From: an uncultured Clostridiaceae bacterium | Lineage (GTDB): Bacteria > Bacillota > Clostridia > Saccharofermentanales > UBA5734 | DNA: 64,000 nt | Reading direction: 5' to 3' | NCBI GenBank assembly: GCA_942493365.1 | Contig: OW818697.1 | Span: 1,634,634 to 1,698,633 of the forward strand | In this document: positions 2,399-64,000 of the stretch, piece by piece | Numbering within the stretch: the stretch's first letter is position 1 | How the letters are laid out: each line of letters opens with the position of its first letter | Notes under the pieces: generated by a model | Told to the model about the DNA's origin: nothing | The model's input: the letters and a program-made list of their open reading frames with translations, nothing else | The model's database searches: none | Program-made: the position numbers and the translations under genes

Positions 2399-4876
2399 AT
2401 GGAAAATGAACACTCGCAAAACACCAACGAACCTCCCCGTCACGCCCTGCGGATCGCCGTGCGCACGTTGGCCGAGACGGTGCATCGCCAAGGCGGGCTG
2501 GCCGGACCGCTCTACAGCGGCGTCAGCTCGGCCGACGGCATCCGGCTGCACCAGCGCTTCGTCAGGTTGCTGGGCGAACGACATCCGGACGCGACGGTCA
2601 CCGCCGAGCTGGCGCTGAACACGCTCTATTCCAGCGCGGAGTTTGACCTGCAAATCAGCGGTCGCTGTGATGCTTTGCTGCAGTTGAATGATGATATCTG
2701 CCTGATCGAAGCCAAATCCTTCACCGGCCCCGCCGACCGTTTGCCGCGCGAGGGTGAGCCGACGCATTGGGCGCAGGCCAAACTTTATGCCTGGCTTTTT
2801 TTGGAAACGCGCCCGGAGCTCCGACAGCTGTCGGTCGGTCTGGCCTATTTGTCTTTGGAATCCGCCGATGCTGTTGAAATGCAGCGTTTGCAGACGCGAG
2901 AAGAACTGTCAGCCTTTTTTCTCGAAACCTGCCGCGTCTATCTGGACTTCACTGGTGACCTGTTGAAAAGCAAGCTGCGCCGCGACCAGAGCGGGCTGGA
3001 CTGCCGCTTCCCCTACCCCGATCTGCGTGCTGGTCAGAAGCAGTTCATGCGCGAAGTCATCGGGGCGGCCCGGCAGAAAAGCGCTGTATTTATCCAAGCG
3101 CCGACCGGCACCGGCAAAACGATGGCGGCGCTTTATCCCGCGGTCAAGGCCGTGGCCAATCATTTGGCTGATCATTGCTTTTACCTGACCGCCATGACCT
3201 CGACGCGCCTGGTGGCGCTGCGCGCGCTTGAAGATTTGCAGAAAGCCGGACTGCTGATGAAGGGCGTCGTGCTTTATGCCAAGGAAAAACTTTGTCTGGA
3301 ACCTGAACTGTATTGCGACAGCCGTCAGTGTTCATTCGCGACATCTTATTACGATCATCTGCCGGCAGCGCTGCGTGAGCTGTTTTTGCTGGAAAACGTC
3401 AGCCGGGATGAAGTCCTGACTTGCGCCAAAAAGCACAAAGTCTGTCCGTTCGAGCTGTCGTTGGACATTGCGTTGTACTGCGAAATCATCATTTGCGACT
3501 ATAATTATGCTTTTGACCCCCGTATCAAGCTGGACCGCTTCTTTGGCAGCGATGCCCGCACCCAGCTGCTGCTGATCGACGAGGCACACAACCTGCCGGC
3601 GCGCTCGCGGGAGATGTTCAGTGCCGCCCTGGACAGCGACAGCCTTCTCGCAGCGCTGGCAGCTATTGACGGACTGTCGCCGCAGCTGACGCAGTCATTG
3701 GGCATCCTGCAAGGCTACATGGCACGTCTGGCCCAGGAACTGTCCGGCAACGAGCCCGGTATCGATCGGGTCGAAAAGGGCATCACCCGCAATGCCGTCA
3801 TGATCGCTGACAATTTTCGCGCCACCCGCGAATTGCCGGCGACCCTGCTGGCCATGCTCGGGCGCTTTTCATACCTTTGCCGTCAGTTTCTCGATCAGCA
3901 CGCGGACTTTCCAGGTCGGCGAAAGCTGCTGGATTTCTATTTCAGCGGTTTATACTTCAGCCGCGTGGTTGAAGAGTTTTTTGACCTGACCTATGTGACG
4001 ACGTTTCAGCTGGTCGGCCGCAAGCTGTCGATTCAAATGCTCTGCCTGGACGCCGCCGAAAAGCTGGCCCGAACATACCGCAGTCTGCATGCCGCAGCTT
4101 TTTTCTCAGCCACGCTGTCACCGATCAATTACTATGTCGGCCTGCTGCACGGCAGCAGCCAAACCGCGCAGCCACAGACGCTGCTGCTGGGGTCACCCTT
4201 CCCGCCCGAAAACCTCCTGGTCATGGTCTGCAGCAATCTGTCGACCCGCTTCAAACAGCGGCAGGAGACCGTGCAGCCAATTTTGCAGATGATCCTGCAG
4301 GCCGTTGGCCAGCGAACGGCCAACTATCTGGTTTATGTGCCTTCCTTTGCCTACCTGTCGATGCTGCGCGGGTTGATCCGGGTGGCGCCGGAACACGCGG
4401 AAATTGACTGGATGTTTCAGCAGTCGGACATGAGCGAGTCGCTGCGCCGCAAGTTTCTCAACCGTTTTGAGACGTTTGGTCAGAAAACCCTCGTTGCTGT
4501 CGCCGTCATGGGCGGCGTCTTTTCCGAAGGCATCGATCTGGTCGGTGAAAAGCTGGCCGGCGTTGTCGTCGTCGGTGTCGGCTTGCCGCAGATCAGTCCC
4601 GAACGCGAAATCATGAAGCAATACTATGCCGAGTCGCTGGGCAGCGGCTATGAATACGCCTACGTCTATCCGGGGTTCAACAAAGTCCAGCAGGCCGCAG
4701 GCCGCGTCATTCGCACCGAAAACGATCGCGGTTTCATCCTGCTGATCGATGACCGCTTTGCCACGCCGGAATACGTCAGCCTCTTTCCAAACGAATGGCA
4801 GCCGGTCGCGGTTGCCGACCCCGCCGAATTGTCAGAGCATCTCAACGAATTCTGGGATCAGGTTGCAGGCCCTTGA
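2399..4876 (+). CDS. DinG/XPD(Rad3)-family ATP-dependent DNA helicase with an N-terminal PD-(D/E)XK-like nuclease domain
   Basis: Walker A QAPTGTGKT and DEAH box LLIDEAHNL. A Cys-rich insertion (KLCLEPELYCDSRQCSF...KVCPFE) is consistent with the XPD-type 4Fe-4S domain. C-terminal motifs are GVFSEGIDL and QAAGRVIRTENDRG. The N-terminal ~190 aa carry GRCDALL...ICLIEAKS (D...ExK). Confidence 0.85.
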   Translation: MENEHSQNTNEPPRHALRIAVRTLAETVHRQGGLAGPLYSGVSSADGIRLHQRFVRLLGERHPDATVTAELALNTLYSSAEFDLQISGRCDALLQLNDDICLIEAKSFTGPADRLPREGEPTHWAQAKLYAWLFLETRPELRQLSVGLAYLSLESADAVEMQRLQTREELSAFFLETCRVYLDFTGDLLKSKLRRDQSGLDCRFPYPDLRAGQKQFMREVIGAARQKSAVFIQAPTGTGKTMAALYPAVKAVANHLADHCFYLTAMTSTRLVALRALEDLQKAGLLMKGVVLYAKEKLCLEPELYCDSRQCSFATSYYDHLPAALRELFLLENVSRDEVLTCAKKHKVCPFELSLDIALYCEIIICDYNYAFDPRIKLDRFFGSDARTQLLLIDEAHNLPARSREMFSAALDSDSLLAALAAIDGLSPQLTQSLGILQGYMARLAQELSGNEPGIDRVEKGITRNAVMIADNFRATRELPATLLAMLGRFSYLCRQFLDQHADFPGRRKLLDFYFSGLYFSRVVEEFFDLTYVTTFQLVGRKLSIQMLCLDAAEKLARTYRSLHAAAFFSATLSPINYYVGLLHGSSQTAQPQTLLLGSPFPPENLLVMVCSNLSTRFKQRQETVQPILQMILQAVGQRTANYLVYVPSFAYLSMLRGLIRVAPEHAEIDWMFQQSDMSESLRRKFLNRFETFGQKTLVAVAVMGGVFSEGIDLVGEKLAGVVVVGVGLPQISPEREIMKQYYAESLGSGYEYAYVYPGFNKVQQAAGRVIRTENDRGFILLIDDRFATPEYVSLFPNEWQPVAVADPAELSEHLNEFWDQVAGP

Positions 4877-56825: not shown

Positions 56826-56847
56826 TTATGTCGATCAGTTCTCTAGG
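56826..56847. repeat. 22-nt exact direct repeat, copy 1 (remnant of an NTase gene 3' end)
   Basis: atgtcgatcagttctctaggat is identical to 58193-58214. Similarity continues weakly for ~9 more nt. On the minus strand it reads ..ATC CTA GAG AAC TGA (ILEN*), as at the end of the NTase gene. Confidence 0.9.
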
Positions 56848-56969
56848 ATTGATAGCTACGCTTTCCTGAAAGCTTTAAGTACACATCTATTACAGTGAAA
56901 AAGCTGGACGCATCGTTTCAATTGCGCCCCTGCTTAAACCAACATACTCTGCAAAATTGAACCAGTGCT

Positions 56970-57070
56970 TTTTGCTGCGATACAAGTTTCCCAAAGTTCT
57001 GAGCGATTAAAGAAATAATCAGGGTGTTCAGACTAACGCCTTCTTCTTCCGCTTGAACAGCAATTTCCTT
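56970..57070 (-). pseudogene. fragment of a hicB-type antitoxin 3' region (RHH-like C-terminus) duplicated from, or related to, 59424-59524
   Basis: By hand alignment about 91 of 101 nt are identical to the 3' end of the intact hicB. It encodes KEIAVQAEEEGVSLNTLIISLIAQNFGKLVSQQ versus KEIAIQAEEEGVSLNTLIISLISQNYGKLVSQQ. Confidence 0.8.
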
Positions 57071-57335
57071 AGTCAGCTTGAATACTGACTCTAAACCCGC
57101 CATAAAGATCATCCTTTCTAATCGGTTCAATTACAACGAGTGAAAATTCTACATCATCATCAAGATTTATCGCCATAATTTCTGCAACGGCTTTTCTTAA
57201 CGTGACCTCTGAAATAGGGTAATTTATAATTGTCGCATCCATATCCATGGTGGAACGCAGATCAATCCCAATACAAGCCGCAATCAACAAACCGCCTTTC
57301 AAAATGAAGTTGTCCTTATAATCCGATTTCGACAA
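57069..57335 (-). pseudogene. AbiEii/AbiGii-type nucleotidyltransferase toxin, truncated at both ends
   Basis: (NERFLERL)SKSDYKDNFILKGGLLIAACIGIDLRSTMDMDATI...IEPIRKDDLYGGFRVSIQA matches the N-terminal third of AbiEii (DUF1814) proteins. The ~40 N-terminal residues usual in this family and the whole C-terminal two thirds are missing. The frame ends where the hicB-like fragment begins. Confidence 0.7.
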
Positions 57336-57366: not shown

Positions 57367-57969
57367 TCACATGAGTACCTCCAAATAATTCCTCAAAGTC
57401 TTCTCAACACCTAACTCCCTGGCGGTTTCCATAAGTAATTGAAAATCCAATGATTTATTGTTGGCAACTCTTTTCAGTGCCTCACTGAAGATTTGAATAT
57501 CAATTCGATTTTTACTTCTGAGGACATCGCAGATCGTTCTTTCTAGCGAATAAACCGTGACGGTATTGCCAAAGGAAGTCTTGGTTTTTGTTACTCCCAA
57601 TAAGTGCAGATCTTTTTTGATGAAATAGATTTTAAACTTGTCAGTGATTGTTTTCACGACCTTGTAACCACTGGGCACCGTTGCCGAATACTCAAACAGC
57701 GTACGATCTGACATCCCATGTAAATACAGGGCTGTTTCATGCGAATAAATCAGCTTTGGATACTTGCCTTGCATGGCAAACATTACATCTTCGACGGCGT
57801 CAGGAAGTGCGTAGACGCCTCTACCTACCCTTTCAAGCTGGCCATCGGCCACCATCAGTGAAAGGTAGGTCCTGGGGATCTCATACTTGTTTAAGTCAGA
57901 GCTTAACACCGTACCGTTCTGTTGTTTGATCAGCTCATCCAATTTTTTTTGATTACCGAAAGTCTTCAC
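57367..57969 (-). CDS. AbiEi-family type IV toxin-antitoxin antitoxin (wHTH transcriptional regulator)
   Basis: GTVLSSDLNKYEIPRTYLSLMVADGQLERVGRGVYAL is an AbiEi N-terminal wHTH. The C-terminal part contains YSLERTICDVLR. GTG start. It lies directly upstream of the AbiEii remnant. Confidence 0.8.
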   Translation of the reverse strand: MKTFGNQKKLDELIKQQNGTVLSSDLNKYEIPRTYLSLMVADGQLERVGRGVYALPDAVEDVMFAMQGKYPKLIYSHETALYLHGMSDRTLFEYSATVPSGYKVVKTITDKFKIYFIKKDLHLLGVTKTKTSFGNTVTVYSLERTICDVLRSKNRIDIQIFSEALKRVANNKSLDFQLLMETARELGVEKTLRNYLEVLM

Positions 57970-58192
57970 CTACTTTTCATTTATACTTACATTATCATCT
58001 TAATAAGTATAATTGTAAAGATGTGGTTTGCAGGTATAAAATTCTTCTGTGACTTCCGGCTTTTCTTGATCAGCTGCAGCATTCTGGCGGCTGCACCACT
58101 TAGTTTATTGGTGCCGGTTTCCCATGCGGGGAGATACAGTATTGATGCAAATTCGCAGCATTTTTCATACCAAATGTCTCTTCACTATTCAT

Positions 58193-58214
58193 ATGTCGAT
58201 CAGTTCTCTAGGAT
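58193..58214. repeat. 22-nt exact direct repeat, copy 2 (the real 3' end of the NTase gene)
   Basis: Identical to 56826-56847. Confidence 0.9.
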
Positions 58215-58956
58215 CGACAGCATAAGCGCGTTAAGCGGTGCCCAATCGCCTTGCTTTTCGTTTGGCTTGGCTTCAATTTGCTCACGAATCACCCTCAGGT
58301 TTCGTTCGATGAAATTGTTTAGTTCATCAATGCGCGGCGTTTCGCGGATTTCCGGCGAGGTTGTTTTCAGCTTTAACAAATCGTCGATGATCGGCCTGAG
58401 TTCAGGTTCGAGCTGTGTTTCGACAAGCTCGGTGAAAGGCATGGGCGGCGGCGTCCCGTTCTGCAATATCCAGCGACACGCCAACAGCGGTCTGATCACA
58501 TAGAAATACTTTTTCGCCTTGACCATTTCGCCCTTGAGATAATCCCGATAGTTTCCCTCGGCCATGCTCAGATAATGCCACAGCCCGGATTTGGCTACGA
58601 AATACTTGCTGATGAGCGGCAATAATTTTTCGAAATGCTCCGAGGTTTTATAAACGATGGGTGAATTGCTCCATTCAAAAAGAGTCGGATTTGAGGTATG
58701 CAAAAGCTTGAGCGTTTTGTCAATATCCCAGCCGTTAAATATCCAGCACGTCACTGAGCGGATATTCCATCACGTCTCTAGGCTTGTCGAGTCGAAGGTA
58801 ATGTTCCTTTGAACGCACGTAAAAAAAGCGCACATCATAATCGCTGTCGGGCGAGGCGAAGCCCCAAGCCCGGCTGCCGGATTCAACAGCATGTAAAATG
58901 GTGATATTTTCCGATCTCTCAATTTCTGTCAGTTTCTCAATGATGATTGCTTGCAT
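58200..58956 (-). pseudogene. Pol-beta superfamily nucleotidyltransferase (Nuc-transf/RlaP-like, YcgL-type) split by a frameshift in a T-run
   Basis: ORF 58735-58998 has LHAVESGSRAWGFASPDSDYDVRFFYV...PLSDVLDI*. ORF 58200-58754 continues in another frame with NGWDIDKTLKLLHTSNPTLFEWSNSPIVY.... Deleting one T from GATATTTAAC (plus-strand aaa at 58737-58739) restores ...DVLDINGWDIDK. The start is set to ATG 58956, after GAAGGGA. Confidence 0.75.
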
Positions 58957-59353
58957 CAAATGTCCCTTCCATGGCTGCCCTGAACGCTTTGTCGTCAAAG
59001 CCCGAATTTCTCTTCAATCCGAAATTGGGCAAAAGTTTCTGCGGCCGCGGTGAATTTGGCAGAACAACGGTCAGCACCAAATATTTGCTAATCACATCAG
59101 CTCGATCAAGTGAGTAACATTCCGAACCGTTTGGCTTGTCAAAGGAATCAAGAGGAATAAAAATCAGCCGGTTTTTCGTCACACCCACCCAATAATAAAT
59201 TGCGATAAACGCATTTACCAGAGGTGGGACAAATAAGGTCTGCATAAATGAGATCTGTTTATCAAATTTCCCAGTTGCCAACAGCTGCTCTTCCGGCAGT
59301 AAAAACTTCTCCAGCGCTTCGCGTGCAATTTGTTCTTGTTTTATCTTTTCCAT
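58937..59353 (-). CDS. hypothetical protein, possibly a bacterial PH-like (YokE/bPH-type) domain
   Basis: ~138 aa. The pattern LLATGKFDKQ....WVGVTKNRLIFIPLD recalls bPH domains, but the assignment is weak. ATG 59353 follows GGGAGGG. Confidence 0.4.
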   Translation of the reverse strand: MEKIKQEQIAREALEKFLLPEEQLLATGKFDKQISFMQTLFVPPLVNAFIAIYYWVGVTKNRLIFIPLDSFDKPNGSECYSLDRADVISKYLVLTVVLPNSPRPQKLLPNFGLKRNSGFDDKAFRAAMEGTFDASNHH

Positions 59354-59407: not shown

Positions 59408-59782
59408 TTATAACCGATTATCATTTTGCTGCGATACAAGTTTCCCATAGTTCTGCGAGATTAAAGAAATAATCAGGGTGTTCAGACTAACGCCTTCCTC
59501 TTCAGCCTGGATGGCAATTTCTTTGTGTAAAGTTTTCGGCAACCTCAAAACAAGTCTTCCGCTAAAAGAAGTGCATGTTTCCTTCGGCGTCGGATAGCTC
59601 TGATGTTCCTCATAGTATTCATCCAGCCATAGCTCGCAAGCCGTTTTGGCCTCCAGAAGGGCCTCCGCTTCGCTTTCGCCGACAGCTGTGCAACCTGGAA
59701 GATCCGGGAACTCGACGACCCAGGAGATGTTTCCATTTTTGTTGGTATAGGGGAATACAGTTTTTCTATAGTTGGGGTACAT
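59408..59782 (-). CDS. hicB: HicB-family antitoxin (HicB fold plus C-terminal RHH-like DNA-binding tail); no hicA seen nearby
   Basis: ISWVVEFPDLPGCTAVGESEAEALLEAKTACELWLDEY is the HicB core. The C-terminal part is LRLPKTLHKEIAIQAEEEGVSLNTLIISLISQ. The start is ATG 59782 after AAGAGG (alternative 59806). Confidence 0.8.
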   Translation of the reverse strand: MYPNYRKTVFPYTNKNGNISWVVEFPDLPGCTAVGESEAEALLEAKTACELWLDEYYEEHQSYPTPKETCTSFSGRLVLRLPKTLHKEIAIQAEEEGVSLNTLIISLISQNYGKLVSQQNDNRL

Positions 59783-59810: not shown

Positions 59811-60671
59811 CTATTTAAACAGTCCCTCCCAATTGTCTGGGAACCCGTTGAATGCAAGATTAATATCATCAGCATATTTATGGACCAGAGCCGTAAGATT
59901 TTCAGAGAAAGATCGCCAATTTGAGCCTTTCTCTAGATTTAATCTCTTTAACATTATAATAACCGGAAATATTTTTATGCTATTGTAAGCAGAATCATCC
60001 TTAAATAGTTTAGGACGTTTCACGATTATTCGATTGTAGAGTCGACCATTGTGTGCGCAAATGTTCCGAATGTAACAAAGACACTCAAACCAGCCGGCAA
60101 GATAAAATTCGTCTATCCCAAAGCATAGTGCAATAGCTTTTTGATCTCCCGGTAACAGATTCCCAAAAAGTTTTGAAGTAATTCCAAATGACCAGGTTTC
60201 GATTGCCGCCCAGATAGGTAAGTCTTTATATATCTCAACATGATGCTTAACAAATGCTGCATCTATCATTTGATCGATTGCATTGGTATGCATTTTTAGA
60301 AACTTTTCGTGTTGCTGCTGATTCGAAAATATCGAACTATCTTTGTGGCAAATATTGCCGTACTTTATCGCCAAGTGGTTTGAAATTGAAGCTCGAAGTT
60401 TAATCTCAATTGGCTCGATTACAGCAATAAATAATCGACGTAGATTTTCATCAAATCTATAGATTCGGTAAATTTGTTCGAAAGTTGTACCTGAACGGAA
60501 AATATTGTTTCTTCGAAGTCCAAGACTATATGCGCTTAATCTGTAGTAGTGAATTCTAGATAGTAAGGTCTCGGCAGATTTATCGCTGCTGATAGTCATT
60601 CCGCGGTCCTTTAGGATTTGGATCTGCTGTTTTATCGTGGTAGCGGATTTTAAGCCTACATCATTTAGCAT
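59811..60671 (-). CDS. Abi_2 family (AbiD/AbiF-type) abortive infection protein, HEPN-like
   Basis: QIQILKDRGM...LLSRIHYYRLSAYS...IYRFDENLRRL...IEIKLRASISNHLA...YIRNICAHNGRLYN (Rx4H). The start is set to ATG 60671, because the upstream 12 codons of the ORF track lie inside the duplicated leader. Confidence 0.85.
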   Translation of the reverse strand: MLNDVGLKSATTIKQQIQILKDRGMTISSDKSAETLLSRIHYYRLSAYSLGLRRNNIFRSGTTFEQIYRIYRFDENLRRLFIAVIEPIEIKLRASISNHLAIKYGNICHKDSSIFSNQQQHEKFLKMHTNAIDQMIDAAFVKHHVEIYKDLPIWAAIETWSFGITSKLFGNLLPGDQKAIALCFGIDEFYLAGWFECLCYIRNICAHNGRLYNRIIVKRPKLFKDDSAYNSIKIFPVIIMLKRLNLEKGSNWRSFSENLTALVHKYADDINLAFNGFPDNWEGLFK

Positions 60672-60691
60672 ATGTTCACCCAGTCCGTTCC

Positions 60692-60757
60692 AAAAAAATG
60701 ACCCCACTTGGTCCGCGGTTTCTCTTTCGAGCCCTAAGCGTGTGGGGTACTGTTATC
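60692..60757 (-). ncRNA. structured leader/small RNA with an intrinsic terminator upstream of the Abi_2 gene (copy 1)
   Basis: The minus strand reads GGGGAUAACAGUACCCCACACGCUUAGGGCUCGAAAGAGAAACCGCGGACCAAGUGGGGUCAUUUUUUU. ACCCCAC/GUGGGGU form a 7-bp closing stem. Inner pairs are CGC/GCG, GG/CC and CUC-GAAA-GAG. A U7 tract follows. The 5' end is inferred from the promoter, not measured. Confidence 0.5.
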
Positions 60758-60760
60758 CCC

Positions 60761-60790
60761 ATTATACAACAAGTTCTGTGTCTAATGCAA
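60761..60790 (-). promoter_or_regulatory. candidate promoter driving the leader RNA and Abi_2 operon
   Basis: On the minus strand, TTGCAT (60790-60785), 18-nt spacer, TATAAT (60766-60761). It is conserved in the second copy (61580-61575 / 61556-61551). Confidence 0.5.
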
Positions 60791-60968
60791 CTTCAATATT
60801 GTTAGTTTGCGGAAAATTAAGTGACATTATTATGATACTATATGCGATACTGTATTTCAAGATTCTATACTTGCTTTTCAGTCAATTATATATCGCTTTT
60901 GAAATGTGATGAGCGACATTCGTTCGACAAATTTCGACAATAGCTCCTCTTGCTTTTGATCCATACCA

Positions 60969-61271
60969 TTACCTGACAGCCTTTCTAATTTCCTTCTCTT
61001 CCAACTGCAATTTGTTCAGTGTATCTTGAAAATAGTGGCGTTTGTCAATTTTCTTCTGAATTTCATCCGAGTCGAACTTATCCTTGGGCCCCAAATAGTC
61101 TGTCTTCACTTTTTTATGAACCCGATAGAGCAGATAGTAATAATCTCGATTCTTGACTTTTTTCAAAATGATCTTGCCTTTAGGCAGCGCGTCAATTTGT
61201 TCCTGGTATGATTTTTGCATGTCCAGATTTCGTTCCAATTCTTCGATGAGAACATTTTTAACTATTGACAC
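60969..61271 (-). CDS. small basic protein of unknown function (100 aa), possible DNA-binding autoregulator
   Basis: GTG start 5 nt after GAGGTG. It contains KGKIILKKVKNRDYYYLLYRVHKKVKTDYLG plus a charged helical tail. I know the motif from small proteins in mobile/defence contexts but cannot name a family. Confidence 0.55.
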   Translation of the reverse strand: MSIVKNVLIEELERNLDMQKSYQEQIDALPKGKIILKKVKNRDYYYLLYRVHKKVKTDYLGPKDKFDSDEIQKKIDKRHYFQDTLNKLQLEEKEIRKAVR

Positions 61272-61320: not shown

Positions 61321-61419
61321 TACCCTACATAATGAAATATTGTTGGCAATTTGTAGGGTATCCATTTAAATGTATTCTACCATACATATATAGATTTTTC
61401 CATATAATTGTAGGGTATC
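61321..61419. promoter_or_regulatory. operator-like triad of TGTAGGGTA motifs around a candidate promoter of the 100-aa gene
   Basis: TTGTAGGGTATC occurs at 61351-61362 and 61408-61419, with an inverted TACCCTACA at 61321-61329. The minus-strand promoter is TGGAAA (61402-61397), 17 nt, TGgTAGAAT (TAGAAT at 61379-61374). Confidence 0.45.
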
Positions 61420-61465
61420 TTTATTCCTCTACTTTCTAAATAATCCGCTTCTTCTCGTCCATACG

Positions 61466-61593
61466 CTCACCCAGTCCATCCAAAATAAAAGACCCCACTT
61501 GGTCCGCGGTTTCTCTTTCGAGCCCTAAGCGTGTGGGGTACTGTTATCCCCATTATACAACAAGTTCTGTGTCTCATGCAATTCACTCAATAT
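61466..61593. repeat. ~128-nt direct repeat, copy 2 (orphan leader module)
   Basis: See copy 1. It is followed on the minus strand by GGGTGAGCGT ATG GAC GAG AAG AAG CGG ATT ATT TAG, only 8 codons. Confidence 0.95.
61481..61547 (-). ncRNA. second copy of the structured RNA with terminator, not followed by an abi gene
   Basis: The RNA core is identical to copy 1. The U-tract is CUUUUAUUUU. Its own TTGCAT-18-TATAAT promoter is retained. Confidence 0.45.
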
Positions 61594-61663
61594 TACATTC
61601 ATTCAATTTTACATCGCATTAGAAATGAACAGAACGTCGTTCGTTCGACAAATCTCGACAAAA

Positions 61664-62551
61664 CTATTCCACTTTCCCAATGATCCGCTCGGCAATGTCC
61701 TGACCAAAGGGCACGCTGCCGTCATCGCCCGTGAACGCGGTCCACTCGTCGTAAATCGCCCGCAGATCAGCGTCCAAGTAAGTCAACGCCCGCTCGCGCA
61801 ACGCCTGCGGAATGCCATAGTAAGCCTCGGCGATGCCGCCGGTAATGGCCGCCAGCGTGTCGCTGTCGCCGCCGACCGAAATGGCGGTGCGGATGGCGTC
61901 CTCGAACGACACCGACTCCAGAAACGCCTCGATCGCCTGCGGCACCGTGTCCTGGCAGGTCTCATTGAAACGGTAGCTCGCCCGGATCTCGTCGATCGTG
62001 AAATCCAGCGGGTAATAGTCCGCCTCGATCCGCCGCCGGATCTCCTGGCGGGTCGCGCCCTGCCGCGCCATGACCATGGCCACCACCGTCGCCTCGGCCC
62101 CTTTGAGGCCCTCCACGTGATCGTGCGTGACCGCCGTGATCACCCGCGAAAGCTGGACGGCATCATCCTCCGACCGCGCGAAATCCCCCACCGGGCTGAT
62201 GCGCATGGCCGCCCCATTGCCAAAACTCTGGTAGGGCTGCGGATGGTCGCTGAACATCCAATTCGCGAACCGGCCGCCATAGCCGCAGTTGGGATACTTG
62301 CGGCCGATTTCCTGCATCCATTGGACCGTCAGTTCGCCGAGGCGCGCATCATACTCGGGGCTGTAGCCCCAGCCGCTTTCCCGCAACGGTTTCAATTTAG
62401 CTGCGGCCATGATCGCCTTGGCCACGGCGAGGGTCATGATGCTGTCGTCGGTGGCAAAGCAGCTCGCGGCAAATAATTCGAAGTCTTTGCTGCGATGATT
62501 GTTGAATTCAAATCGCGACCCGACGATGTCGCCAATGATTGCTCCTAGCAT
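61664..62551 (-). CDS. ADP-ribosylglycohydrolase family protein (DraG/ARH-like)
   Basis: MLGAIIGDIVGSRFEF...TDDSIMTLAVAKAI...GNGAAMRISPVG...GGDSDTLAAITGGIAEAYYG are the canonical ARH metal-binding motifs. Its G+C is visibly higher than both flanks. Confidence 0.9.
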   Translation of the reverse strand: MLGAIIGDIVGSRFEFNNHRSKDFELFAASCFATDDSIMTLAVAKAIMAAAKLKPLRESGWGYSPEYDARLGELTVQWMQEIGRKYPNCGYGGRFANWMFSDHPQPYQSFGNGAAMRISPVGDFARSEDDAVQLSRVITAVTHDHVEGLKGAEATVVAMVMARQGATRQEIRRRIEADYYPLDFTIDEIRASYRFNETCQDTVPQAIEAFLESVSFEDAIRTAISVGGDSDTLAAITGGIAEAYYGIPQALRERALTYLDADLRAIYDEWTAFTGDDGSVPFGQDIAERIIGKVE

Positions 62552-62847: not shown

Positions 62848-63543
62848 TCAAAATAAATCTAAGTCGCTGATTTGCATCTGTAAAGATATTGCTGGCTTTT
62901 TGTAGCAGCTTATAAAAGCAGCTCTACTTGATAATGCTTTATCAAGCTGTCCGAGATTAAGTAAACTAACAAACAGCGCTGCTGACCTAGCCTGGCAATT
63001 TACGGATTTATTATGATTGAATTCGATATCCGTAAATATTTCGAAAGAATTTAACTCTTTTGCGAGATCAGGATTTTGTAGTAAGGCGTTAATATATAGC
63101 CAGTCATAAAAAGCCGTTTTCGGTTCAAGCGACCAATCGCACCCGCTATATTGGAAATTCAACAACCTACCAGAATTTTTCAGTCGCATATCCTTTTTTG
63201 CTTCGCTTGCTGAACAATTCAGTAAATCTGTAAATGGCCCACCACAAGCAAATACTTTTGCTGATTGAAATATGTTCTCAATACTAACTCGTCTATCCAG
63301 ATCATCAACCTTCATTTTCAAATTGAAAGCACTTAGGGCAACACCTAACGGGTTTTCGGATTTTGATGAGATTTCGAGCATTCGTTTCTCGGAATATTTT
63401 TTCTTTATTTGGTTATGCAGTGATCGAATTGATTTTTGTTTCTGGCTTACAGAAAAGCCCGTAAAGAATTCAAAGTCACATAACTCTTCCGAAATAAAGT
63501 GCTTTTCATTAGGAGTTGATCTAAAGAATAATCTTTGTGCCAT
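62848..63543 (-). CDS. NADAR-like (YbiA/DUF1768 superfamily) protein, candidate DarT1-associated antitoxin
   Basis: PLGVALSAFNLKMKVDDLDRRVSIENIFQSAKVF parallels the NADAR core (FSNF..-~15 aa-..SEHYFQAQKF in E. coli YbiA). FYDWLYINAL...FTDIEFNHNKSVNCQARSAALF is a pattern I associate with DarT1-linked NADAR proteins. The ATG is 9 nt after the upstream stop, with GAGG as RBS. Confidence 0.55.
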   Translation of the reverse strand: MAQRLFFRSTPNEKHFISEELCDFEFFTGFSVSQKQKSIRSLHNQIKKKYSEKRMLEISSKSENPLGVALSAFNLKMKVDDLDRRVSIENIFQSAKVFACGGPFTDLLNCSASEAKKDMRLKNSGRLLNFQYSGCDWSLEPKTAFYDWLYINALLQNPDLAKELNSFEIFTDIEFNHNKSVNCQARSAALFVSLLNLGQLDKALSSRAAFISCYKKPAISLQMQISDLDLF

Positions 63544-63552
63544 GAATAGGCC

Positions 63553-64000
63553 TCACTTCCAATAGGCAAAGTCGTGCCTATAACTAAAGTATTCACGAGA
63601 GTAACTACTGTTGATATTGAGATTACGAGATTTGACAAGCGTTTCTACTTCATTATGCACATCATTGGTAGGCGCTAATATTCCAGTAATATATTCAATG
63701 CTAATACGCTCTTTGACTAATACCTCAGCTTGCGGATTAGATGTGAAATTGTCAGTTAAAGCCAGATCTCCACGCGTTTTTTCTCCCGCCTTGGTTGTAA
63801 TACGATCGCTAAATAATCGCTGTATTCCGGCGATACCTTTTAGCTGGTCTGGATAATTGAAGATATAGTTTAGATATTTCGTTGCATTATGCGGGCAGTA
63901 AAGCACATCTTGATATTTATTCGCCAATATAATCGGGTTTATGGTTAACATAATCCATTTATTGTCAAGATGATGTAATTTGTTCCAAAGCATCAGATAA
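63553..64000 (-). CDS. DarT-like (DUF4433-type) DNA ADP-ribosyltransferase toxin, C-terminal part (5' end probably beyond the window)
   Basis: The C-terminal NPQAEVLVKERISIEYITGILAP resembles the DarT ARTT-loop glutamate motif (QAEFLV followed by ..I..IGV). The frame is still open at nt 64000. It is followed immediately by the NADAR-like gene. Confidence 0.5.
   Translation of the reverse strand, partial: YLMLWNKLHHLDNKWIMLTINPIILANKYQDVLYCPHNATKYLNYIFNYPDQLKGIAGIQRLFSDRITTKAGEKTRGDLALTDNFTSNPQAEVLVKERISIEYITGILAPTNDVHNEVETLVKSRNLNINSSYSREYFSYRHDFAYWK

Follow-up and report, generated by a model that had tools for sequence, protein, structure and literature searches.

Organisation of the locus

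The stretch of DNA analysed here, hereafter the window, is 64,000 nt of contig OW818697.1 from an uncultured Clostridiaceae bacterium (GCA_942493365.1). It carries two copies of a short leader module, comprising a promoter, a predicted RNA, a terminator and a ribosome-binding site (RBS). Copy 1 precedes abi, a gene for a toxin of the Abi_2 family, while copy 2 has no such gene behind it. Judged from its sequence, copy 2 can securely be classed as a second, toxin-less copy of an antitoxin RNA gene of the abiF class. Every gene between 56 and 64 kb is encoded on the minus strand, and the region is a defence island. In the order of transcription it contains DarT, NADAR, an ADP-ribosylglycohydrolase (ARH) gene, copy 2, an 8-codon open reading frame (ORF), a gene of 100 amino acids (aa), copy 1, the Abi_2 gene and a HicB-like gene. 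The features that bear directly on the two copies are the following.

59811..60671, minus strand: abi, an Abi_2 / AbiD-F HEPN toxin gene of 286 aa, with RNxxxH present
60669..60940, minus strand: copy 1 module, directly upstream of abi, delimited by alignment and by the covariance model R1 described below
60969..61271, minus strand: 100-aa gene with a weak DUF6788 match, between the two copies
61436..61462, minus strand: 8-codon ORF, MDEKKRII*, behind a kept RBS, at the junction where homology to the abi locus ends
61460..61661, minus strand: copy 2, whole module (distal block, promoter, RNA, terminator, RBS and ATG), abi-less, aligning with 60669-60940
61491..61574, minus strand: copy 2 core, 84 nt, from the promoter spacer through the -10 box and the RNA to the 3' side of the stem P1
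61598..61661, minus strand: copy 2 distal block, 80% identical to 60877-60940, with the direct repeats TTGTCGAGAT / TTGTCGAACGAA

Comparison of the two copies

Segments 60700-60783 and 61491-61574 are identical at 84 of 84 positions at an offset of 791 nt. The identity described in the original prediction is therefore real, but the offset of 790 nt given there, with a copy 2 core at 61490-61573, is not, as only 25 of the 84 bases match at that distance. A 71-nt core pattern matched the window twice, against an expectation of zero in shuffled sequence. Outside the core the copies differ to the predicted extent of about 20%: the 31 nt between core and ATG contain six mismatches, and the distal 64-nt block is 80% identical. 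This block lies at an offset of 721 nt, versus 791 nt for the core, reflecting an indel of ~70 nt by which copy 1 carries extra sequence between distal block and core. The gapped alignment extends from TTGTCGA (60940 / 61661) to the ATG (60671-60669 / 61462-60). By simple arithmetic, the chance of 84 straight matches on a background of ~80% identity is 0.8^84, or ~1e-8, so the contrast between core and flanks is not a matter of chance.

The alignment also bears out that homology stops at the start codon, beyond which copy 2 continues into the 8-codon ORF (ATG GAC GAG AAG AAG CGG ATT ATT TAG; 61462..61436, minus strand). No remnant of abi was found between 61272 and 61462, either by tblastn or on reading the sequence, and the abruptness with which homology ends at the ATG rather suggests a junction left by deletion or replacement. 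The upstream repeats TTCGACAA / CTCGACAA were recovered where they had been reported. Both distal blocks had been thought to begin at the stop codon of the preceding gene. This is correct for copy 2, whose block lies 2 nt from the ARH stop (61664-61666), but not for copy 1, where the stop of the 100-aa gene (60969-60971) is 28 nt before the block at 60940.

Promoter, RNA and terminator

The two modules can be resolved into the following parts.

61552..61581, minus strand: copy 2 putative promoter, TTGCAT at 61581-61576, an 18-nt spacer and TATAAT at 61557-61552
61482..61545, minus strand: copy 2 predicted RNA, supported by its R1 score, its fold and a terminator-like site
60790-60785 (TTGCAT) and 60766-60761 (TATAAT), minus strand: copy 1 promoter
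60754-60700, minus strand: copy 1 RNA, then AUUUUUUU

Taken together, these elements mark the core as a self-contained, putative promoter-RNA-terminator unit of the minus strand. Both copies present TTGCAT, an 18-nt spacer, TATAAT, GGGGAU and AACAGU, and the -10 box stops 6 nt before AACAGU, which is the modal spacing across the family. In copy 2 the RNA continues from AACAGUA into a 7-bp P1, P2, an apical hairpin P3 with a GAAA loop, the 3' bulge GACCAA and UUUUAUUUU, the last being an interrupted U-run. P1 and the U-run are predicted to double as an intrinsic terminator, and the 3' tails tell the copies apart (UCUUUUAUUUU in copy 2 versus UCAUUUUUUU in copy 1). The RBS GGGUGA is found in both copies (61472-61467 in copy 2), and the ATG of copy 1 lies 29 nt after P1. 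A module of promoter, RNA, terminator and RBS ahead of abi, as originally proposed, is thus supported by sequence features in copy 1.

The same layout is visible throughout the family. A -10-like hexamer most often ends exactly 6 nt before AACAGU (47 of 90 distinct upstream regions), and T occupies at least five of the nine positions after P1 in 105 of 109 instances. On this promoter spacing and U-tail, each instance of the family is a putative autonomous transcription unit. The arrangement for expressing the toxin gene by read-through, with a non-coding RNA (ncRNA) promoter and an intrinsic terminator before abi, can likewise be seen family-wide as sequence features.

Next to the -10 box of the window modules, a 5' GGGG...CCCC could fold as a small hairpin. 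A riboswitch-like antiterminator that sets this hairpin against P1 was considered and rejected, because relatives lack the GGGG, which is moreover located upstream of the inferred start of transcription.

Assignment to the abiF motif

On its sequence and predicted fold, the RNA can securely be placed in the abiF motif class (Rfam RF03085), which comprises antitoxin RNAs of the AbiFr/RCd22 type. The original prediction had correctly seen a real RNA unit but had not recognised its class, the antitoxin RNA of AbiF HEPN toxins. The contigs of Abi relatives (83, 67, 49, 47 and 47% identity) all carry nearly the same sequence just upstream of the start codon, AACAGUACCCCACACGCUUAGG.CUCGAAAGAG.AACCGCGGACCARGUGGGGUC, followed by a U-run. 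At locus L007, CCUCAU...AUGAGG replaces CCCCAC...GUGGGG, which constitutes a double compensatory change. A survey of one genome per species, with a pattern that fixed only the conserved flanks, retrieved 85 loci, which belong to Bacillota, Actinomycetota, Spirochaetota and Chloroflexota. Most frequent among them is a 44-nt version, which scores 38.1 bits with RF03085, against a gathering score of 37. These Rfam-positive siblings share the flanking elements AACAGUACC...GCGGACCA with the window RNA, and the link to RF03085 is made because such short-loop sequences reach the threshold.

In the RF03085 structure, P1 spans 6-7 bp and is followed by a one-base bulge and a P2 of 3 bp, which is capped by an 11-nt loop; the 3' side has a bulge of six bases. 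Apart from the loop, all of these recur in the window RNA, with P1 as CCCCAC/GUGGGG, the bulge A, P2 as CGC/GCG and the 3' bulge GACCAA; the invariance of bulge and P2 across loci is by construction, since the search pattern fixed those positions. In place of the apical loop CUCUYAACRAU there are 21 nt (UUAGGGCUCGAAAGAGAAACC) that form a further stem closed by GAAA, a loop of the GNRA type. Insertions of the same kind occur in other lineages (L033, L047, L048, L054 and L057), and the apical hairpin is backed by GAAA, GAGA, UUCG and UUUG loops with compensating stem changes. Because this insertion replaces the loop, Rfam is blank here: the window RNA does not reach the RF03085 gathering score, and there was no match in the whole window, 3.5 kb, or 121 nt even at E 10. 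The Rfam abiF model thus misses lineages with the apical insertion, and the family is under-annotated for this reason. As regards genomic position, members of RF03085 lie directly upstream of an Abi_2 gene on the same strand, which applies to copy 1 but not to the abi-less copy 2.

Covariation supports the fold. Across 27 distinct sequences, the seven pairs of P1 are formed in 99.6% of cells and all four variable pairs covary; none of 500 shuffles reached the score, and slid registers were far off as well. Model R1, built from those 27 sequences, scores both window copies at 57.4 bits (E 6e-11), and scanning the 64 kb with it revealed no third copy. BLAST of the module against plasmid and phage records returned no match, nor did a first, narrower pattern on viral contigs.

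The toxin and published AbiF systems

The Abi protein matches Pfam Abi_2 (E 1e-49) and PADLOC AbiD (E 9e-89). It aligns over its full length with PbAbiF (PDB 8VZ6; E 2.4e-25), the only solved member of the family, and its RNICAH aligns with RNSCCH of that structure, in agreement with the R-x4-6-H motif. Relatives and the RBS support the upstream ATG at 60671 as the probable start. The matching public protein (P0001) is annotated with 262 aa, 24 residues fewer than the ORF.

The closest described architecture is that of RCd22/AbiFCd of Clostridioides difficile phi027, where a SigA promoter yields a short RNA ending at a Rho-independent terminator, together with a minor read-through transcript that includes abiF (PMC12373285). 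In a type III-like manner, RCd22 represses in cis, neutralises AbiFCd in trans and co-purifies with it (PMC12373285). As the window likewise has a putative promoter, an ncRNA and a predicted terminator ahead of a toxin gene that read-through would reach, copy 1 and abi are read as an AbiF-type, type III-like toxin-antitoxin system, in which the window RNA would bind and neutralise Abi. Both systems also have two motif copies for one toxin. However, the motifs of RCd22 are 19 nt apart in one transcript of 100-130 nt, whereas those of the window have a putative promoter and terminator each and are 791 nt apart, with a gene between them. A second point of reference is PbAbiF-AbiFr, in which the dimer binds two ncRNAs and the single-stranded bulge of the RNA blocks the RNase (review PMC12737573). 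The hairpin with a conserved single-stranded bulge, reported in PbAbiFr to block the HEPN site, is common to both, although protein identity with the window Abi is low and the likeness is drawn at the protein level.

A more distant parallel is ToxIN, which also has an RNA antitoxin upstream of the toxin gene with a terminator between them, and in which the toxin can be neutralised by additional or stand-alone copies of the antitoxin. The fold of ToxN is not of the HEPN type and is unrelated to that of Abi. ToxI consists of 34-36-nt repeats in tandem, which the toxin processes, and no array of this type (34-50-nt repeats) was found in the window, which has only two copies, 791 nt apart, as separate units.

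Toxin-less copies in other genomes and viral contigs

The genes behind the RNA instances were classified as follows.

Genome representatives, 85 instances: abi in 51 (43 intact and 8 cut by the contig end); abi frameshifted, truncated or internally deleted in 8; none within 1.5 kb in 23; undetermined in 3
Viral contigs, 11 instances: abi in 2; frameshifted, truncated or internally deleted in 1; none within 1.5 kb in 8; undetermined in 0

The RNA recurs in relatives upstream of Abi genes, and 23 of the 85 genomic instances have no abi gene. Judging by these counts, the RNA often stands without a toxin gene, most of all on viral contigs. A lone abiF small RNA has also been described in a phage genome, in work on cyanophages (PMC9964418).

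Remnants of abi persist at several loci. Some of the cases without abi (L013, L021, L036, L073, L078, L051, L020 and L103) keep the first 15-25 abi codons, or an N-terminus fused to the C-terminal GFP..W end, and in L113, a 71% relative of the window Abi, an in-frame stop at about codon 22 follows an intact RNA. Double modules occur as well. In L012, from an Eggerthellaceae genome, only one abi is preceded by a pair of promoter-RNA-terminator modules 209 nt apart (1254-1518), the first of which loses its homology a few codons beyond the start. On the viral contig L110, two modules 139 nt apart (2018-2209) have no abi and are followed by what reads from the sequence as a ParB/methyltransferase-like gene. 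In L098, an RNA two bases different from that of the window (4093-4146, minus strand) lies just after an integrase-like gene, of which the N-terminus was read, with no Abi detected further downstream. In the metagenome contigs L100-L102 the RNA is flanked by nearly the same sequence. A decayed second copy is present in L044, with both bulge and P1 mutated (25.6 bits).

Toxin-less RNAs of different species are 95-100% identical while one or both of their flanks cannot be aligned, an identity that is only suggestive because the instances were found by an exact pattern. No common type was found among the ORFs behind abi-less instances, the few inspected by eye reading as unrelated functions such as methyltransferase, restriction-specificity-like and transposase-like proteins. 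In relatives the RNA is almost unchanged whereas Abi proteins are 47-67% identical, consistent with the proposal that the RNA is the constrained part of the unit. Of the two origins originally offered for copy 2, the scar of a lost toxin gene or an extra dose of the RNA, both are favoured by the comparative data. Rfam has listed the abiF motif for years, and the antitoxin role of the RNA has been known since 2025. What is new here is a structural variant of the abiF RNA that Rfam misses, an arrangement in which one toxin has two antitoxin genes, each with a predicted transcript of its own, and how often toxin-less copies occur, above all on viral contigs.

Interpretation of copy 2

Given the class of the RNA and a PbAbiF-homologous toxin with its RNA antitoxin upstream, copy 2 is read as a toxin-less antitoxin RNA gene. 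We infer its expression, its neutralisation of Abi and the order of events as follows. A sigma-70-type promoter would start transcription at AACAGU, giving an RNA of ~60 nt that would fold as one irregular hairpin. P1 and the U-run would terminate most transcripts, and read-through at copy 1 would yield the abi mRNA. By analogy with RCd22/AbiFCd and AbiFr/PbAbiF, the RNA would bind the HEPN RNase dimer and keep it inactive until infection disturbs the balance. Read-through at copy 2 would meet only the 8-codon stub, so that antitoxin would be made without toxin and the ratio of antitoxin to toxin would rise.

As for its origin, a leader-abi cassette was probably duplicated or present in tandem, and deletion or replacement would have removed one toxin ORF as far as its start codon; its place is taken today by the DUF6788-like gene unit. 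Losing a toxin is harmless and losing an antitoxin is not, which would explain why RNA genes outlive abi. Constraint on the RNA, with probable gene conversion, would have kept the core identical.

On balance, and with modest confidence, we take copy 2 to be a remnant or duplicate that still supplies antitoxin in trans. Against flanks that differ by 20%, it keeps an intact promoter, RNA, U-tract and RBS. Its RNA is identical to the cognate antitoxin and, if transcribed, would add antitoxin without adding toxin. Several observations weigh against this interpretation. The -35 match is weak (3/6), which is also why the promoter of copy 2 was not listed by the promoter scan. Antitoxin activity is known only from RCd22 and PbAbiFr, both distant members of the family, and the survey, being based on an exact pattern, favoured intact copies. 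The identity of the two cores may predate a recent deletion, both cassettes having been constrained as long as they bore toxins. It also reaches 26 nt into the promoter spacer, a part that relatives do not conserve, which points to gene conversion, a process that needs no function.

The alternative that survives best is that copy 2 has no present role and is only a scar, left by the deletion of a second abi cassette or by a local duplication. Its identity to copy 1, including that of the unconstrained promoter spacer, could then be due to nothing more than recency or gene conversion. The end of homology at the ATG, with an unrelated gene unit after it, is also what a scar would leave, and truncated, frameshifted or internally deleted abi genes stand behind intact RNAs at other loci (L013, L113 and others). 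The island itself contains other decayed toxin genes (see below). An inert copy would not, however, be expected to keep every functional element with flanks 20% diverged, and a truly decayed copy can be recognised as such in L044. Moreover, this alternative does not exclude the spare antitoxin, as a transcribed copy 2 would act as antitoxin whatever its origin. We consider an inert relic possible but rather unlikely.

Copy 2 might instead be the leader of the 100-aa gene, controlling by termination and read-through a second effector or partner. The gene is on the same strand and starts 190 nt downstream of the copy 2 ATG, and the interrupted U-run could allow read-through. Past the 8-codon stub, however, come ~160 nt with repeats and a promoter-like site before the 100-aa gene.

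61321..61419, minus strand: control region of the 100-aa gene, with TACCCTACA / TGTAGGGTA direct and inverted repeats around a promoter-like site at 61402..61374

The gene thus has a promoter-like site of its own, and a homologue in L093 is preceded by analogous TACCATACA repeats, although DNA alignment of L093 with the window covers the coding region only. The 100-aa protein has 21 relatives carrying the weak DUF6788 signature. They occur in unrelated neighbourhoods, and neither an abiF RNA nor a called Abi_2 gene was found close by in the loci examined. Conversely, tblastn detected no similarity to the protein in any of the 92 loci then collected, which carry the RNA instances then known. 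As its homologues sit in unrelated loci free of the RNA, the 100-aa gene is best treated as an independent unit and not as a partner of the RNA, and a leader function of copy 2 is improbable.

Searches of the 100-aa protein against Pfam, PHROGs, NCBIfam and PADLOC gave nothing significant. Its AlphaFold model (predicted local distance difference test score, pLDDT, 94.6) consists of a helix, a three-stranded sheet and a long helix. No significant neighbour was found for the model in the PDB, the best being integrase arm-type domains (E 0.2). The protein may be an autoregulated small DNA-binding protein.

According to the original prediction, the unit behaves like a portable 5' cassette boundary. 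As a recombination module, it would allow one toxin gene behind it to be exchanged for another. The RNA is indeed far better conserved than the Abi proteins behind it, toxin-less RNA genes stand in unrelated flanks, and homology in the window stops at the start codon. The distal block nevertheless speaks against a mobile gene-cassette boundary. It is unique to this locus, no further TTGTCGA repeat block having been found in the window or in the 102 loci searched, and in copy 1 it lies 28 nt away from the stop codon. The ORFs behind abi-less instances are of no common type, and no recombinase or site signature was seen in the ORF and Pfam survey of 55-64 kb, which did not include a search for integrases. 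Short TGTCGAA / TTTCGAAAT-type direct repeats precede the RNA promoter in the window (60919-60940 and 61640-61661). Words resembling them occur upstream of the RNA in L113 (~650-720) and in Eggerthellaceae loci including L012 (1350-1430), and may for this reason represent a lineage-specific operator; a 6-mer test for TCGAA-type words upstream of all instances gave no general enrichment. We therefore hold a portable boundary to be very improbable. What looked like a cassette in the window would be what the turnover of toxin-antitoxin systems ordinarily leaves in a defence island undergoing decay. Lastly, an assembly or duplication artefact is hardly credible: exact 84-nt repeats can mislead assemblers, but the flanks differ by 20% and by an indel of ~70 nt, a complete conserved gene lies between the copies and the repeat is shorter than typical reads.

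Solo RNA genes as possible antitoxins

At this locus the antitoxin RNA gene appears to stand on its own, as a unit with separate transcription that is open to duplication and can persist after its toxin is lost. Whether solo RNA genes of the abiF motif form a widespread functional class of solo antitoxins is a bolder proposal, which we put forward only tentatively and consider unlikely as it stands. It draws on the eight of 11 viral instances without abi, on the tandem modules of the viral contig L110, on the abi-less RNA of L098 just downstream of an integrase gene and on the nearly identical flanks of L100-L102. If solo RNAs do act, they would be a simple counter-defence or buffering device. 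A solo RNA beside its own system, as in the window and L012, would buffer that system, and one on a phage or integrative element would disarm the AbiF of the host. This would resemble the pseudo-ToxI of phage PhiTE, a phage-borne antitoxin mimic that neutralises the toxin. AbiF systems with RNA antitoxins have been proposed as ancestors of CRISPR-Cas13, and how the RNA component of abiF multiplied is part of that origin story.

Neighbouring genes in the island

The island is AT-rich, and the remaining window has a GC content of ~55%. The genes that flank the two modules and abi are the following.

63553-63993, minus strand: DarT, cut by the window end
62848-63543, minus strand: NADAR antitoxin, DarT1-associated
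61664-62551, minus strand: ARH gene, GC-rich
59408-59782, minus strand: HicB-like gene with HicB and Arc/RHH-like domains

The HicB-like gene begins 29 nt past the abi stop codon, with no hicA beside it among the listed ORFs, and it may belong with abi, for example as a regulator. The ARH gene, directly downstream of the DarT1-NADAR pair, stands out from its AT-rich surroundings by a far higher GC content. It may encode a second enzyme for ADP-ribose removal tied to that pair or be a separate acquisition.

Decay is evident further along the island. AbiEi (57367-57969) is intact, and AbiEii (57069-57335) ends after 88 aa and is joined to a fragment of a second hicB (56918-57130). The hicB end is repeated over 101 nt at 90% identity (56970-57070 versus 59424-59524) and the rlaP end over 30 nt (56827-56856 versus 58192-58221), with RlaP itself split over two ORFs (58200-58754 and 58735-58998). 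With AbiEi intact and AbiEii truncated, the same island shows the loss of other toxins while antitoxins were kept.

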